64,000 nt of DNA, from positions 139,192,001 through 139,256,000 of the forward strand of contig CM059431.1 of the NCBI GenBank assembly GCA_030390025.1, in the 5' to 3' direction. The stretch's first letter is position 1. Every line of letters starts with the position of its first letter. The stretch is from Squalus acanthias. Lineage: Eukaryota. The position numbers and the translations under genes are program-made. Positions 13,254 to 21,293 of the stretch are shown in pieces. Below the pieces are notes generated by a model, which saw nothing but the letters and a program-made list of their open reading frames with translations, was not told the DNA's origin and did no database searches.

Positions 13254-15407
13254 GAGTCATAGAGTCATAACTGCACAGAAGGAGGCCATTCGGCACATCG
13301 AGTCCGTGCTGGATCTCTGTAGAGCAACCCAGTCAGTCCCATTCCCCCGCTCTATCCCCGTAGCCCTGCAAGTTTATTTCCCTCAAGTGTCAATCCAGTC
13401 TGCCCTTGAAAAAATTGAGTGTCTCCGCTTATGCCAATTCCGTCGGCAGCGAGTTCCAGGTCCTCACCACTCGCTGCATAAAAACGTTTTTCCTCACATC
13501 GCCACTGTATCTCTTGCCCAAAACCTTAAATCTATGTCCCCTAGTCCTTGGACCATCAACTAGTGGGAACAGCCTTCCCCCGTCTAGCCTATCCAAACCC
13601 GCCATAATCTTGTACACCTCTATCAAATCACCCCGCAACCTCCTTTGCTCTAATAAAACCAAATCCAGCTTCTCCAACCTGTCTTTATAGCTAAGATCCC
13701 CCATCCCCGGAACCATTCTGGTGAATCTACTCTGCACCCTCTCAAGGGCCTTCACATCCTTCCTAAAGTGTGGTGACCAGAACTAGAAGCAATACTCGAG
13801 TTGTGCCCTAACCAGCGCTTTATAAAGGCTCAGCATAACTTTTCTACTTTTGTATTCAATACCACTGTTTATGAAGTTCAAGATCCCATATGCTTTGTTA
13901 ACCACTCTTACGCTATGCCCTGCCACCTTCAGGAACCTATGCACATTAACTCCCAGGTCCCTCTGTCCCTGCACACTCTTTAAAACTGTGCAATTAAGTG
14001 TATATTGCCTCTCCCTGTTCCTTTTGCCAAAATGAATTAACCACAGTTCTCTGTATTAAATTCCATCTGCCACTTGAATCCCATTCTGCTGGCGTTTCTA
14101 TGTCCTGTTGCAGTCAATTAGTATTATCCTCAGTTTTCACTCTCCAAAGTTTAGTGTCATCGGTAAATTAAGAAGTTCTACTCTGAATTCCAATATCCAG
14201 GTCAATTATATATATCAAAAAAAGCAGTGGCCCCAGCACTGACCCTTGGGGAACACCGCTGTCGACCATCGTCCAGTCTGATAAACAGCCATTTACCACA
14301 ACTCGCTGTTTTCTGTCCTTTAGCCAATTCTTTATCAAAGTTGCCACTGACCCACCTATTCCATGAGCCTCAATTGTGTTAATCAGCCTTCTATGTGGTA
14401 CTTTGTCAAACGCCTTCCGAAAATCAATGTAGACAACAGCCATTGCATTCCCTTCATCAATCCTCCCTGTTATTTCATTAAAAAATTCAATTAGATTAGT
14501 CAAAGACGATCTGCCTTTTAAAAATTCGTGTTTGCGCTCCTTAATTAGCTTAAACCTCTCCAAGTGCCCGTTAATTTTTCCCTTGGTTATTATTTATAAA
14601 ACTTTACCCACCAGTGATGTTAAACTGGCCGGCCTGTAGTTACTAGGATTGTCTTTATATCTTTTCTTGGACAATGGTGTCACATTTGCCAATCTTCAGG
14701 CACCTCCCCTTTTGGAACTACACTATTCTTTGCACTTTTTAACACTATTTCCTGTAATTTTATTTATCTCTCAACTCTTTGACGACCATTTCCGTTTTAA
14801 TTGGTAAGTAAAGCTTTTGCCCTTTAGGGGTATATACTGGCCCAGTATTAAGCCAAATTCTTTTCTGAACACCTCCCACTGCTCATCTGCAGTCTTACTC
14901 GATAACAATTTTGACCAGATTGCTGTCGTCAGTCTCTGTCTCTTCCCGTTCATGTGACCAAAATGGAGATTCTTAAAATTGTGTTACGTTTCTCCTTTAA
15001 ATCCGAGCGTTGCAATCGATCATATTATGCTCACTGTTAGATAATAGTTCTCTTACTGTTATATTATTAACTAAGACTGGATCATTGTTCATTACTAAAT
15101 GTACTAAATCTTTTTGGTTCTTCAACATATTGCTCCAGAAAACTATCTTGAATGTACTCAATATATTCACTACCTTTCCGACTTGAGCTCTTCCCATGTT
15201 AGCTGAAAATTAAAGTCTCCAATTAACACAACCCTGCTTTTGCTACAATCCTCTCTAATCTCTGAATTAACACATGCTGTATCTTCATTGCTGCTATCGG
15301 GAAACCTGTAGACAACTCCCGTTAAAGCTTTCAGTAGTTGCTTATTTCTCAATTCCCAACACAGCCTCCCAGCTGATTACTTTACCTTACGTATATCCTC
15401 TCTCACT
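13254..15407 (-). mobile_element. CR1 LINE fragment (APE to 3' end), interrupted by the younger CR1; resumes at ~19577-19645
   Basis: [38 protein letters not shown] motifs; (ACTCTATG)-type tail at 13254-13269; KDRETVRGG APE piece beyond 19577. Confidence 0.88.
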
Positions 15408-15506
15408 CATAGATACATAGATACATAGAAGATAGGAGCAGGAGTAGGCCATCCGGCCCTTCGAGCCTGCTCCGCCATTTAATGAGATCATGGCTGATCC
15501 TTCAAT

Positions 15507-18458
15507 TCAGTATCCCGTCCCCGCCTTCTCTCCGTAACCCTTAACCCCTTTTGCCTGTAGAAATATATCTAATTCCCTCTTAAATATATTTAATGAGCTG
15601 GCGTACACTGCCCTCTGTGGCAATGAGTTCCACAGGTTCACCACTCTCTGAGTGAAGAAATTCCCCCTCATTTCTGTCCTAAATGGTTTAGCCCTTATCC
15701 TTAAATTATGTCCTCTAGTTCTGTTCTCACCCGCCAAGGGAAACATTCCTTCTGCATCTAATCTGTCTAGACCTGTCAGAATTTTATACACTTCTATGAG
15801 GTCCCCTCTCAATCTTCTAAACTCCAGTGTGTACATCCCTAAACTACATAGTCTCTCCTCATAGGTCAATCCCGCCATTCCTGGTATCAGCCTGGTGAAT
15901 CGCCGCTGCACCCCCTCCATGGCAAGAACATCTTTCCTCAGATGAGGCGACCAAAACTGTACACAGTACTCGAGGTGTGGTCTCACCAGTGCCCTGTACA
16001 GCTGCAGCAAGGTATCCCTGTTCCTGTATTCCAACCCTTTTGCTATGAAGGCCAGCATACCGTTTGCCTTCTTGACCGCCTGTTGCACCTGCATGCTCGC
16101 CTTCAGTGACTGGTGTACAAGAACACCCAGGTCTCTCTGTACTTCCCCCTCTCCCAATTTATTGCCATTTAAATAATAATTTGCCCTCCCGTTCCTGCAC
16201 CCAAGGTGGATAACTTCGCACTTGTCCACATTATAGTGCATCTGCCATTTATCCGCCCAATCACCCAGTCTGTCCAAATCGCTCTGGAGCTTCCTGGTCT
16301 CCTCCTCTGAGCCCACCCCCCCTCCTAGTTTAGTGTCGTCTGCAAATTTGGAAATGCTGCATTCGACTCCCTGATCCAGGTCATTAATATAAATTGTGAA
16401 CAGCTGGGGACCCAGGACAGATCCCTGTGGTACCCCACTTGTTACTGCCTGCCATTCAGAAAATGAGCCGTTTATTCCAACTCTCTGTTTTCTATCTGAC
16501 AGCCAGTTCTCTATCCACGTCAATACTTTCCCCTTTATCCCATGAGCTTCAATTTTCCATGCTAATCTTTTATGTGGGACCTTATCGAAGGCCTTTTGGA
16601 AGTCCAGGTACACCACATCTACTGGCTCTCCCCCATCTATTTTACCAGTTACTCCCTCAAAAAATTCCAATAGATTAGTCAAGCACGATTTACCCTTTGT
16701 AAATCCATGTTGACTCTGTCCTATCCTGTCCCCATTTGCTAAGTGCTCGGCTATTTCATCCTTAATGATGGACTCCAGCATTTTGCCCACAACTGATGTA
16801 AGGCTTACAGGTCTGTAATTACCTGCTTTTTCCCTACCCCCCTTTTTGAATAGTGGGGTAACGTTAGCTACCCTCCAATCCATGGGCACTGTTCCCGAGT
16901 CTAATGAATTCTGAAAAATCATGCTTAGTGCATCCGCTATCTCTAGGGCCACCTCCTTCAGTACCCTAGGATGCATGTTATCAGGCCCTGGGGATTTGTC
17001 CGCCTTCAATCCCTTTAGCTTCCTTAACACCATATCCTTAGAGATATTGATTTGCGTCAGTTCCTCCTTTGCCAATGTCCCTATTTTTCCCGATATCCCA
17101 GGGAGGTTTTTTGTGTCTTCCTTCGTAAAGACTGACCCAAAGTATGCATTTAGTTGGTCTGCCATTTCCTTATTTCCCATTATATATTCCCCCGTATCTG
17201 ACTGCAATGGACCAACTTTGGTTTTCACCAGTCTTTTCCTCTTGATATACTTATAAAAGCTTTTGGAGTTAGTTTTTATATTTTCCGCCAGCTTGCTTTC
17301 GTAAGCTATTTTGCCCTTCTTGATTAAGCCCTTTGCCCTCCTTTGCTCTATCTTAAACTGTTCCCAATCTTCCGCTCTGGCGCGTTTTTTGGCTATTTTA
17401 TACGCCCTATCTTTGGATTTTATGCTGTCTCTAATTTCCCCTGTTATCCACGGTTGAGTCACCTTTTTAGATTTCCTTTTATGCCAGATTGGTATAAACA
17501 ATTTTTGCAATTTTGTCATTCTATCTTTAAATGCTTGCCATTGTTTATCTACCTCCAGTCCTCCCAGGAACGTTGTCCAATCAGACCTACTCAGTTCCCG
17601 TCTAATGGCATCATAATTCCCCTTGTTTAAATTCAGGACCTGAGTCTCTGAGTCAATTTCTTCGCTCTCCATTTCGAGTGAGAAATCGATCATGTTATGA
17701 TCGCTCTGACCCAAGGGTCCCCGTACAACAAGATTACTAATTAGTCCCTTCTCATTGCACAGTACCCAGTCCAATATAGCCTGTTCCCGAGTTGGTTCCT
17801 CGACATATTGATCCAGATAACCATCCCTTAAACACTCAAGGAATTCCTCCTCCTCATTATTTTTACTGATTAGGCTAGTCCAATCTATATGTAAGTTAAA
17901 GTCACCTATGATGACAGCTGTGCTCTTATTGCACGCTTCTCTAATTTCCCTCGTGATGCCCTCCCCAACCTCTATTTTACTATTTGGAGGCCTATATACC
18001 ACTCCTATTAATGTTTTTCGCCCCTCGCTATTTCTTAGCTCCACCCATATAGATTCTGTATTAACTGAGTTAATATCCTTCCTTTCAATTGCATTTATCC
18101 CCTCTTTTACCAGCAATGCTACCCCTCCTCCCTTTCTTTTTTGTCGATCCTTCCTAAATACTGAATACCCCTGTATGTTAAGCTCCCAGCCCTGCTCACC
18201 CTGCAACCATGTTTCCGTAATCCCAATTAGATCATAATTATTAACCTCTATTTCCACAGCTAATTCATCTACCTTGTTCCTGATGCTTCTCGCATTAAGG
18301 TATAAAACCCTCAGGCTTTTTTTATGCTCACATTTTTTATGAATTAGTTTGGCCCTTTGTTTTTTGTTCCTCTCCTTTTTACCATTTATTTCTGTCTGCC
18401 TTTCACTTTCCTCTATTTCACTACATGGGTTTCTAGCCCCCTGCCATACTAGTTTAAA
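15507..18458 (-). CDS. CR1 ORF2: APE endonuclease + reverse transcriptase (open frame extends 67 codons upstream of the tracked GTG start)
   Basis: LYLNARSIRNK, ITETW, GDFN, SDHN (APE); [27 protein letters not shown] (RT). Frame is open from TTT AAA CTA at 18458 to the stop at 15507. Confidence 0.95.
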   Translation of the reverse strand, partial: FKLVWQGARNPCSEIEESERQTEINGKKERNKKQRAKLIHKKCEHKKSLRVLYLNARSIRNKVDELAVEIEVNNYDLIGITETWLQGEQGWELNIQGYSVFRKDRQKRKGGGVALLVKEGINAIERKDINSVNTESIWVELRNSEGRKTLIGVVYRPPNSKIEVGEGITREIREACNKSTAVIIGDFNLHIDWTSLISKNNEEEEFLECLRDGYLDQYVEEPTREQAILDWVLCNEKGLISNLVVRGPLGQSDHNMIDFSLEMESEEIDSETQVLNLNKGNYDAIRRELSRSDWTTFLGGLEVDKQWQAFKDRMTKLQKLFIPIWHKRKSKKVTQPWITGEIRDSIKSKDRAYKIAKKRARAEDWEQFKIEQRRAKGLIKKGKIAYESKLAENIKTNSKSFYKYIKRKRLVKTKVGPLQSDTGEYIMGNKEMADQLNAYFGSVFTKEDTKNLPGISGKIGTLAKEELTQINISKDMVLRKLKGLKADKSPGPDNMHPRVLKEVALEIADALSMIFQNSLDSGTVPMDWRVANVTPLFKKGGREKAGNYRPVSLTSVVGKMLESIIKDEIAEHLANGDRIGQSQHGFTKGKSCLTNLLEFFEGVTGKIDGGEPVDVVYLDFQKAFDKVPHKRLAWKIEAHGIKGKVLTWIENWLSDRKQRVGINGSFSEWQAVTSGVPQGSVLGPQLFTIYINDLDQGVECSISKFADDTKLGGGVGSEEETRKLQSDLDRLGDWADKWQMHYNVDKCEVIHLGCRNGRANYYLNGNKLGEGEVQRDLGVLVHQSLKASMQVQQAVKKANGMLAFIAKGLEYRNRDTLLQLYRALVRPHLEYCVQFWSPHLRKDVLAMEGVQRRFTRLIPGMAGLTYEERLCSLGMYTLEFRRLRGDLIEVYKILTGLDRLDAEGMFPLAGENRTRGHNLRIRAKPFRTEMRGNFFTQRVVNLWNSLPQRAVYASSLNIFKRELDIFLQAKGVKGYGEKAGTGY

Positions 18459-19396
18459 TGCTCCCGAACTGCTTTATCAAAATTTACCCCGAGAACCTCA
18501 GTTCCATCTTTGCACAGGTGTAGACCGTCCCTTTTGTATAGGTCACACCTACCACAAAACTGGTCCCAATGCCTCAAAAATTTAAAACCCTCCCTCTTAC
18601 ACCACTGCTCAAGCCACGTATTTAGCCTAACTATCCTGTTCTCTGTACTCTTACTAGCACGTGGCACTGGTAGTAATCCAGAGATTACTACCTTCGAGGT
18701 CCTACTTTTTAGCTTGGCTCCTAACTCCCTAAATTCTACTTGTAGGACCTCTTCCCTTTTTTTAGCTACGTCGTTGGTACCAACATGTATCACGACAACT
18801 GGCTGTTCCCCCTCCCCCTCCAGAATGTTCTGCACCCGCGCCGAGACATCCTTGACCCTTGCACCAGGGAGGCAAATTACCATCCTGGAGTCTCGGTCGC
18901 GACCACAGAAACTCCTATCTATTCCCCTTACAATCGAATCCCCTATTACTATAGCCCTGCCACTCTTTTTCCCTCCCTTCTTTGCAACAGAGCCAGTCAT
19001 GGTGCCATGAGCCTGGCTGCTGGTGCCTTCCCCCGATGAGTCATCCCCCCCGACAACAGCACCTAAGGCGGTGAACCTGTTGCTGAGGGAGACAACCCCA
19101 GGGGATTCCTGCACTACCTTCCTGCCCTTGCTCTGCCTTTTGGTCACCCATGTACTATCTACTCTGGCCTTAACCTGCGGTGTGACCAACTCACTAAATG
19201 TGCTATTCACAACCCTCTCAGAATCGTGGATGCTCCAAAGTGAGTCCATCCGCAGCTCAAGGGCCGTCATGCGGTCCCACATGAGCTGCAGCTGGACACA
19301 CTTCCCGCACACATGGTTGTCAGGGACACAGGAAGCGTCCATGATTTCCCACATGTTACAGGAGGAGCATGACACAGGTCCGAGCTCTACTGCCAT
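18449..19396 (-). CDS. CR1 ORF1p: Cys-rich zinc finger/leucine zipper + SGNH/GDSL esterase domain (315 aa)
   Basis: CSSC...CGKC, then IVIGDSIVRG, CLPGA, HVGTND, DGLHL esterase blocks. Confidence 0.95.
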   Translation of the reverse strand: MAVELGPVSCSSCNMWEIMDASCVPDNHVCGKCVQLQLMWDRMTALELRMDSLWSIHDSERVVNSTFSELVTPQVKARVDSTWVTKRQSKGRKVVQESPGVVSLSNRFTALGAVVGGDDSSGEGTSSQAHGTMTGSVAKKGGKKSGRAIVIGDSIVRGIDRSFCGRDRDSRMVICLPGARVKDVSARVQNILEGEGEQPVVVIHVGTNDVAKKREEVLQVEFRELGAKLKSRTSKVVISGLLPVPRASKSTENRIVRLNTWLEQWCKREGFKFLRHWDQFCGRCDLYKRDGLHLCKDGTEVLGVNFDKAVREHLN

Positions 19397-19649
19397 GACT
19401 TAACCCTTATATTACTTATTAATTTTCTAGTTTTAGTTTATTTATTGACTTTTGTTTTCCCGAAGCTTACTTAGACCAATGTATACTGTACTCCTCTTAT
19501 TCCTTTTTAAACTAACCAAATCGCACTAGTTTTAGTTGTACTTTCTAGGAAGGTTTGAGGAAAGTACTTACCAGTTATGCTGTAATATACCTTTAATCAT
19601 TTCGGCTGTCCTTCCTCCCCTTACAGTTTCCCGATCCTTTATACAGAGC

Positions 19650-21293
19650 ACTATCACTAGAGGAAAAAGTACTAGGCAAACTAATGGTTCTAAATGTGAA
19701 CAAGTCCACTGTACCTGATGGCCTGCATCCTATGGTCTTAAAATAATTGGCTGCATAGATAGTGGATGCATTGGTTGTAATCCACCAAAATTCCCTGGAT
19801 TCTGAAGTGGTCCCAGCGTATTGGAAAACCGGAAATGTAAAGCCCCAATTCAAGAAGGAGGGACACAGAAAGCAGGAAACTATAGACCAGTTAGCCTAAC
19901 ATCTGTCATTTTGAAAATGCTGGAGGCCATTATTAAGAAATTAGCAGCAGGATATTTAGAAAATCATAATACAATCAAGCAGATTCAGCAGGGTTTTATG
20001 AAAGGGAAATCACGTTTGTCAAATTTGCTATAGAGTTCTTTGAGGATGTAACGAGCAGGGTGGATAAAGGGGAACCAGTAGATGCAGATTATTTGGATTT
20101 CCAGAAGGTGTTCGATAAGGTGCCACATAAAAGGTTACTGCCCAAGTTAAGAGCTCACGGGCTTGGGGTAATATATTAGCATAGTTGGAGGATTGGCTAA
20201 CTCACAGGAAACAGAAAAATCGGGATAAATGGGGAATTTTTAGGTTGGCAAACTGTAACTAGTGGGGTGCCATAGGGATCAGTGCTGGGGCCTCAACTAT
20301 TTACAATCTATATTAACGGCTTGGATGAAGGAACCGAGTGTAATGTAGCCAAATTTGCTGATGATACAAAGATAGGTGGGAAAGCAAGTTGTGAGGAGGA
20401 CACAGAAAGCCTGAAAAGGCAGACAGATAGGGTAAGTGAATGGTCAAACATTTAGGAGATGGGGTACAATGTGAGAAAATGTGAGGTTATCCACTTTGGT
20501 AGGAAAAATAAAAAAGCAAATTATTATTAAAATGGAGAGAGACTACAAAATGCTGCACTGAAGAGGTATCTGTGGTTCTTTGTACATGACATTCAAAAAG
20601 TTAGCATGCATGTACAGCAATTAATTGGAAAAGCAAATGGAATGTTGGCCTTTATTGCAAGGGGATGGAGTATACAAGTAGGGAAGTCATGCTACAGCTG
20701 GACAGGGCATTGGTGAGACCACACCTGGAGGACTGCGAACAGTTTTGGTCTCCTTATTTAAGGAGGTATATATTTGCATTGGAGGAAGTTCATAGAAGGT
20801 TGACTAGGTTGATTCCTGAAATGAGGGGGTCGTCTTATGAAGAAAGGTTGCGCAGGTTGGGATTATACTCACTGGAGATTAGAAGAATGAGAGGTGATCT
20901 TATTGCAACCTATAAGATTCTGAGGAGACTTGACAGGGAAGATACAGAGAGGATGTTTCCCCTCCTGGGGAAAACTAGAAGTAGGGGGCATAGTTTCAAA
21001 ATAAGGGGCCGCCCATTTTAAACGAGAAAAGGAGAAATGTATTCCCTCAGAAGGTCGTGAATCTTTGGAATTCTCTGCCCCAGAGTGCGGTGGAGACTGT
21101 GTCATTGAATATATTTAAGTTGGAGATAGACTGATTTTTGAACTATAGGGGATTCAACGGTTATGGGGAGCGGGCAGGAAAGTGGAGTTGAGGCCTAGTT
21201 CATATAAGCCATGATCTTATTGAATGGCAGAGGAGGCTCGAGGGGCCAAATGGCATACTCCTGTTCCTATTTCTTATATTCTTATGTTCTTAT
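19650..21293 (+). mobile_element. 5'-truncated CR1 LINE (decayed RT to 3' end)
   Basis: AGNYRPVSLTSV, KFADDTK, LVRPHLE motifs with stops; (TTCTTATG)n tail at ~21271-21293. Confidence 0.92.

Follow-up and report, generated by a model that had tools for sequence, protein, structure and literature searches.

How is the second open reading frame (ORF2) of a CR1-type long interspersed nuclear element (LINE) translated when no AUG precedes its endonuclease domain? The question is raised by a full-length element in a 64,000-nucleotide stretch of the Squalus acanthias genome (assembly GCA_030390025.1, contig CM059431.1, forward-strand positions 139,192,001 to 139,256,000), referred to below, at its whole length, as the window. 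The element lies on the minus strand; its first frame (ORF1) encodes an esterase and closes on TTA AAC TAG, and ORF2 follows in the -1 frame. The probable answer, judging from comparison of this junction with its relatives, is that ribosomes slip back by one base on U_UUA_AAC and so produce a fusion of ORF1 with the APE endonuclease and the reverse transcriptase.

When the 3.7 Gb genome was searched for copies, the 401-nt junction was matched at 100% identity by at least 40 places, 40 of the 738 first-look candidates having been scored, and the 30 copies that were retrieved are 99.86-100% identical over up to 2.8 kb. Eight of these 30 copies have the same 5' end, at 19577, while the other 22 start at differing cut points, such 5' truncation at varied positions being usual for LINEs. 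By these sequence features the window element is an intact, very young LINE of the CR1 group that is currently or was very recently active. As it has only just been amplified, its ORF2 must be expressed from exactly this arrangement of reading frames.

The ORF1/ORF2 junction and its conservation

On the minus strand the junction reads ...GTT CGG GAG CAT TTA AAC TAG TAT GGC AGG GGG.... A preliminary description of the locus had placed the heptamer T TTA AAC at 18458-18452, in the phase of ORF1 and immediately before its stop, and the sequence agrees exactly. The further particulars of that description hold as well. It had the -1 frame closed five codons upstream, and TGA TAA indeed stands at 18479-18474; beyond it the frame runs AGC AGT TCG GGA GCA TTT AAA CTA GTA TGG CAG... 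and continues without a stop through the APE domain to 15507, which amounts to 988 amino acids (aa) from stop to stop, or 983 codons counted from TTT. The first Met of this frame, said to come only after the APE domain in the peptide SDHNM, lies where the APE match ends and is the 255th codon counted from TTT. The ATG beside the ORF1 stop (TAG T ATG GCA GGG GGC TAG) belongs, as described, to the third (+1) frame and meets a stop after four codons; an ORF2 start that overlaps or adjoins the ORF1 stop in the ORF2 frame, as in SART1, is absent from the window copy. Finally, the fusion estimated at about 1,296 aa is computed at 1,296 aa, with the predicted transframe peptide ...FDKAVREHLN-LVWQGARNP....

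UUUAAAC is the slippery heptamer of coronaviruses. The window holds 14 TTTAAAC heptamers among 128,000 positions, both strands counted, XXXYYYZ strings with Y = A or T are found at 0.39% of positions, and ORF1 has three in-phase canonical heptamers in its 315 codons. The chance of finding an in-phase heptamer in the overlap of about six codons is therefore a few percent, which makes the single copy suggestive rather than conclusive; it is the conservation of the heptamer across lineages that takes the case beyond chance. Another in-phase heptamer, A_AAT_TTT at 18484-18478 (minus strand, ORF1 codon 303), precedes the main site by nine codons; it can give no long product, because its -1 frame runs straight into TGA TAA. 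Four sequencing runs, available as contigs and of presumed RNA status at best, were aligned to the window; with depths in the thousands they behave like collapsed repeat contigs, and neither transcription nor splicing nor start sites can be read from them. Among the differences listed between runs and window, none falls in 18449-18458, while listed ones do occur at 18427, 18477, 18483 and 18497.

In the proposed mechanism, one mRNA would carry two overlapping frames and ribosomes would translate ORF1, that is, the Cys-rich region and the esterase. Most of them would end at the UAG directly after UUA AAC. A minority would slip back by one base: the Leu tRNA would leave UUA and pair with UUU, and the Asn tRNA would exchange AAC for AAA, or else only the latter tRNA may slip, while the stop codon occupies the A site. 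Slipped ribosomes would read CUA next, then a linker of about 45 codons and then APE and reverse transcriptase. The product would be the 1,296-aa ORF1-ORF2 fusion, so that much ORF1 protein (ORF1p) and little ORF2 protein (ORF2p) would be made per RNA, as in retroviral Gag and Gag-Pol. It is from the anatomy of the junction and its conservation that we infer the occurrence of slippage, its minority rate and the activity of the fusion as an enzyme.

Further families were found by searching the same genome with distant ORF1 proteins. Three more CR1 families of S. acanthias have the same type of junction, at 57-67% identity to the window element in the ORF1 C-terminus and about 32-52% in APE. Their ORF1s end in (G/C/A)T TTA AAC TAA, and APE again lies in the -1 frame, the frame of TTT AAA (Table 1); in the older fourth family this frame is closed one codon before the heptamer.

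The same junction is found outside this genome. A profile of 21 ORF1 proteins, scanned against metagenome contigs, gave 80 loci, six of which have an intact ORF1 frame ending in TTA AAC and a stop. Five of them (L092, L095, L098, L101 and L125) read GCT TTA AAC followed by TAG or TGA, which makes the heptamer TTTAAAC, and all of these except L125 have an ORF1 closest to alligator ORF1p. The sixth, L088, reads TCG TTA AAC TAG and so has the heptamer GTTAAAC; GUUAAAC is the slippery site of equine arteritis virus. Two decayed metagenome copies, L089 and L145, retain TTTAAAC T(A/G).

At the protein level, Leu-Asn (LN) forms the C-terminus of 35 of 105 database homologues of ORF1p, annotated sources of which include Pristiophorus, Mobula, Leucoraja, Hypanus, Hemitrygon, Mustelus, Stegostoma, Narcine and Alligator. 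ALN closes another three proteins, which are alligator-like, and the 39 homologues with a complete C-terminus other than LN are mostly teleost proteins. One homologue (P0012), which is 56% identical and ends in GLN, has an NCBI entry under Pseudomonas aeruginosa on a contig of 4,159 bp; most probably the bacterial assembly is contaminated with vertebrate DNA.

TTAAAC and an adjacent stop are thus kept in phase in 10 lineages, namely the four shark CR1 families and six metagenome contigs, with TTTAAAC in nine and GTTAAAC in one. The preliminary description had suggested -1 frameshifting from the window copy and had named the in-phase conservation of TTTAAAC among CR1 junctions as a check; the comparison supports the suggestion. 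When the 10 lineages are anchored on the site without gaps over 130 nt, the only invariant blocks are TTAAACT and the GG of a downstream G-run, while even the codons of the catalytic D-G-L-H residues vary. The stop itself may be TAG, TAA or TGA, yet it always abuts the heptamer. Elsewhere in these ORF1s TTA serves for 22 of 186 Leu codons (11.8%) and AAC for 35 of 69 Asn codons, and T stands at 24% of third positions, so that a constraint on the Leu-Asn peptide alone would give T TTA AAC in about 1.4% of cases per independent lineage. With TTAAACT invariant while catalytic codons and synonymous sites elsewhere are scrambled, and with TTA otherwise rare, selection appears to act on the nucleotides: the site is, by this comparison, conserved beyond the needs of the protein.

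The ORF2 frame, too, is tied to the heptamer. APE lies in the -1 frame in all 11 lineages that have an APE match. In 8 of 11 lineages (12 of 15 copies) the opening of the -1 frame lies 1-5 codons ahead of the heptamer; it lies further upstream in L031 and L033 (37 codons), L125 (17) and L145 (19), and in L055, a fused copy with nine G (see below), the -1 frame is ORF1 itself. Stops were scored from the heptamer to the first APE-aligned residue, a stretch of 35-92 codons. Over this stretch 8 of 11 lineages are free of stops in the -1 frame and three decayed copies have one or two, against 2-12 in each of the other two frames. Closed upstream and lacking stops downstream, the frame is maintained from the heptamer on but not ahead of it. 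Its first Met comes after the start of APE, at codon 255 in the window family, 166 in the 311-aa family and 178 in the 317-aa family.

Several points weigh against frameshifting. The lineages are related by descent and do not count as independent samples. The residue before LN can use an NNU codon in 34 of the 35 LN-ending homologues, but this is a weak test, its binomial estimate of about 2% having been made on related sequences. An in-frame AUG does lie between the junction and APE in L089 (codon 4), L098 (codon 22) and L088 (codon 28), for which a conventional or re-initiated start of ORF2 is possible. Lastly, no fold that was run revealed a conserved stimulatory structure 3' of the heptamer. 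A 129-nt fold of the window copy gave z = +0.35, that is, no significant structure, and RNAalifold over 11 sequences gave no pairs. The 80 nt after the stop, folded singly in 12 junction copies, gave z values from -3.5 to +1.0 with no common fold; the low values come only from two-layer G-quadruplexes predicted in five of the 12, the window copy not being among them. The preliminary description had likewise seen no strong pseudoknot downstream. A 3' stem-loop or pseudoknot about 5-9 nt downstream is usual, though not universal, for -1 signals and is missing here, which places the junction outside the heptamer-plus-pseudoknot class, though slippage may still operate.

Downstream, a stretch of five or six G is kept. 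Its first base follows the heptamer by 11 nt in 11 of 13 junction copies; the exceptions are L082 and L084, of one family, with +9, and L088, with +8. The run is found in the window copy and in L031, L072, L043, L082, L088, L092, L098, L101, L125, L145 and L089, although the surrounding sequence and the encoded peptide differ. Since neighbouring codons add G on both sides of a GGG codon, it is more than a conserved glycine; it may act as a weak stimulator at the mRNA entrance, as a small G-quadruplex in some lineages, or in a role outside translation. Given that no RNA structure is conserved downstream, stimulation may come solely from the abutting stop and the conserved G-run. A passage of PMC3894237 argues that a LINE needs very little ORF2p, and the low efficiency to be expected of a signal lacking a pseudoknot would suit such an element.

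Relatives with ORF1 and ORF2 in one frame

In 19 metagenome loci APE lies in the same frame as ORF1. Fifteen of these esterase-ORF1 loci have a single in-frame TGA between ORF1 and ORF2, beyond which no stop interrupts the frame until APE has begun; the ORF1 frame extends to as many as 373 codons and the downstream frame is open for up to at least 499. The base after TGA is C in 13 of the 15, and UGA followed by C is a leaky stop context. In six of the 15, no Met is encoded within 40 codons. These features point to stop-codon readthrough, rather than frameshifting, in the TGA lineages. Two different recoding devices at the same junction would then both give an ORF1-ORF2 fusion, which argues that the fusion is the intended product and suggests that it is tolerated or used in relatives.

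Genomic copies that encode the predicted fusion exist, although activity of the fusion is not implied by them. In the 317-aa family, which is young, a G-run of varying length lies directly 5' of the heptamer. It has eight G (G8) in 11 of 12 unselected copies, while long open frames, reaching 1,290 aa, are present in 10 of 115 scored search matches. Among 14 copies picked for long open frames, 12 (L055-L065 and L067) have ORF1 in frame with ORF2; nine of these runs are of G9 length, two of which (in L059 and L060) are broken by a substitution, and three are of G12 length. Of the remaining two, L068 has G25 and is not in frame, and L066 belongs to the 311-aa family. The fused copies were considered as an active single-ORF lineage and rejected as such, only the G-run change being common to them. 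Compared with the 12 unselected copies over 801 nt, and in subfamily trees on 780 nt, they have no further variant in common and are spread over the two backgrounds defined by the polymorphic column 430; they are therefore best explained as repeated slips in a homopolymer and not as a lineage. Four longer database proteins that join the esterase with APE or reverse transcriptase are gene models of uncertain structure and were not used.

Competing routes to ORF2 and known systems

For the LINEs investigated to date, the accounts given are of termination-dependent re-initiation (passages of PMC3708506 and PMC3894237). Applied to CR1, it would have ribosomes restart near the stop in the -1 frame, as in L1 or SART1, and release a separate ORF2p, the heptamer being incidental. 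The early ORF2-frame AUGs of L089 and L098 would suit such a route, but three actively amplifying shark families have no AUG before APE, and the ATGs near the stop differ in frame (+1 in the window, 0 in L092, -1 in L089). Neither a start codon nor a near-cognate one is kept at any one position near the stop among the junction copies and the 10 anchored lineages compared. Re-initiation also leaves unexplained why TTAAAC, its phase and the preceding T are kept at synonymous sites, and on balance it is unlikely. The fused copies of the 317-aa family raise another prospect, that slippage takes place in nucleic acid rather than on the ribosome. ORF2p would then come from a minority of RNAs or from master copies already in frame, through transcriptional or reverse transcription slippage or indels, and would act in cis or in trans; the G9 and G12 copies do fuse the two ORFs in this way. 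Yet the window and 311-aa families have no variable G-run, and the fused copies look like independent slips. If ORF2p acts preferentially in cis, on the RNA that encodes it, fused RNAs should dominate new insertions, whereas most copies are G8. As such slippage would, moreover, give no reason for keeping TTTAAAC, it is very improbable.

It is equally hard to credit that the motif serves some other purpose, ORF2 being expressed by other means. Leu-Asn is the ORF1p C-terminus in the 35 database proteins mentioned above, and might be kept for its own sake; the motif might also function in packaging or in reverse transcription, at the level of RNA or DNA, and the nearby G-run is likewise kept with no known role. 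But codon choice at the site is fixed beyond what the protein needs, and neither the phase, nor the ever-adjacent stop, nor the position exactly where the ORF2 frame opens finds an explanation in this way.

As a frameshift signal the junction resembles retroviral Gag-Pol and coronaviral ORF1a/1b, with an X_XXY_YYZ heptamer in phase, the polymerase in the -1 frame and a fixed minority of fusion product to be expected. It differs from them in that there is no stem-loop or pseudoknot, whose place is taken by a conserved G-run, at +11 nt in most lineages; the heptamer is in every case directly followed by the zero-frame stop, and no protease is present to split the fusion. With the UAAUG coupling of SART1 and the re-initiation of human L1 it shares a second ORF on one LINE RNA and an event at the ORF1 stop. 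Those elements, however, make a separate ORF2p and need no slippery site, according to passages of PMC3708506 and PMC3894237, whereas CR1 keeps no start codon and has a -1 relation with a canonical heptamer.

The general idea of frameshifting is not foreign to LINEs, since ORF2 of the APE-type elements TRE5-A and TRE3-A of Dictyostelium is said to depend on a -1 frameshift. They belong to another clade and another host and have another type of ORF1, and the passages on them state no conserved heptamer, whereas seven bases define the CR1 site in lineages across the vertebrates. L1 and SART1 are the only worked cases of ORF2 translation in passages of PMC3708506 and PMC3894237, where the LINE mechanism is called unclear and CR1 frameshifting is not mentioned; HeT-A and TART are the only non-LTR elements mentioned in passages of a large review of recoding (PMC5009743). 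No link between CR1 and a slippery site or frameshift was found in the literature searched, a search that did not take in Kapitonov and Jurka 2003, Haas 1997 and Kajikawa 1997. The words 'frameshift' and 'overlap' do not occur in two papers devoted to CR1, one of which, PMC13343379, is also without 'slippery' and 'readthrough', and the paper on the structure of the ZfL2-1 esterase is silent on the ORF1/ORF2 junction. The signal appears to be of a known kind, -1 frameshifting with the logic of Gag-Pol, but its form is unusual, and in CR1 it may have gone unrecognised so far.

A wider proposal can be advanced only tentatively. Recoding, and not re-initiation, may be ancestral and general for LINEs with an esterase ORF1 (CR1/L2), in the form of UUUAAAC slippage in canonical CR1 from sharks to crocodilians and of UGA-C readthrough in sister lineages, each giving an uncleaved fusion enzyme. 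In that event CR1 would carry a novel eukaryotic frameshift cassette, minimal and structure-free, made up of the heptamer, the abutting stop and a G-run about 10 nt downstream.

The element, its surroundings and what the junction may mean

The features of the element, together with the related families and loci, are collected in Table 1.

Table 1. Features of the window element, junctions of the related S. acanthias families, and in-frame TGA loci
Feature	Position or loci	Strand or source	Remarks
Full-length CR1-type LINE, 4,170 bp	15408..19577	minus	both ORFs intact; 5' end common to other copies; octamer 3' end
5' untranslated region, 181 nt	19397..19577	minus	ORF1 ATG is element position 182
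ORF1, 315 aa and TAG stop (18451-18449)	18449..19396	minus	Cys-rich N-terminus, then SGNH/GDSL esterase
TGA TAA closing the -1 (ORF2) frame	18474..18479	minus	five codons before the heptamer; read from sequence
Slippery heptamer T_TTA_AAC	18452..18458	minus	X_XXY_YYZ phase with ORF1; covers the last two sense codons of ORF1
GGGGG run	18437..18441	minus	starts 11 nt after the heptamer; kept across lineages
ORF2 frame from the heptamer, 983 codons and TGA stop	15507..18458	minus	-1 relative to ORF1
APE endonuclease domain	17697..18296	minus	PF03372 match, residues 60-259 of the 988-aa frame
Reverse transcriptase domain	16206..16838	minus	PF00078 match, residues 546-756, 1.5e-31
3' tail, (ATCTATGT)n-type octamer repeats	15408..15432	minus	read directly from sequence
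311-aa family, ORF1 end GGT TTA AAC TAA	L031-L042		-1 frame TTT AAA CTA ATT TGT CAG GGG GAT GGG
317-aa family, ORF1 end (G)n GGT TTA AAC TAA			-1 frame TTT AAA CTA ACT TGG CAG GGG GAT GGG
Older fourth family, ORF1 end GCT TTA AAC TAA			-1 frame TTT AAA CTA AAT AGT GGG GGG AGG
In-frame TGA loci	L086, L093, L105, L108, L112, L113, L115, L119, L124, L130, L136, L143, L144, L151, L165	metagenome contigs	

ORF1 matches Lipase_GDSL_2 (PF13472, 1.4e-11) and OSK (PF17182, 7.4e-9), and ORF2 matches Exo_endo_phos (PF03372), PF14529 and RVT_1 (PF00078). Octamer repeats at the 3' end, in place of poly(A), are a hallmark of the CR1 group, and the window element ends in this manner, with short octamer repeats (...TCTATGTATCTATGTATCTATG) and no poly(A). 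It also has the esterase type of ORF1 that goes with this group, with alligator proteins among the homologues. The label 'CR1' rather than 'L2' rests on the octamer tail and on the homology of ORF1 to alligator proteins. In vertebrate CR1 and L2 the esterase is the sole identifiable type of ORF1, according to passages of a 2026 survey (PMC13343379).

Two other LINE copies lie close to the element. Directly 3' of it, in the same orientation, is an older, decayed copy (window positions 14168-15380, minus strand), which consists of a reverse transcriptase fragment (ORF 14168-14593) and APE-like remnants with stops. On the opposite strand, at 20605-21021 (plus), a truncated CR1 copy has an open frame of 138 aa that resembles the C-terminal part of CR1 ORF2.

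CR1-group elements are the main retrotransposons of most vertebrates, according to PMC13343379. Because the conserved site is only seven bases long and can be changed by one synonymous mutant, the question of how their ORF2 is expressed is directly testable. If the site works, ORF2p would be attached to ORF1p from its synthesis onward, a possible explanation of cis preference, and it would be the ribosome that sets the ratio of ORF1p to ORF2p. The annotated start sites of CR1 ORF2 would then need revision, and a structure-free frameshift signal with an abutting stop and a G-run would join the eukaryotic recoding repertoire.

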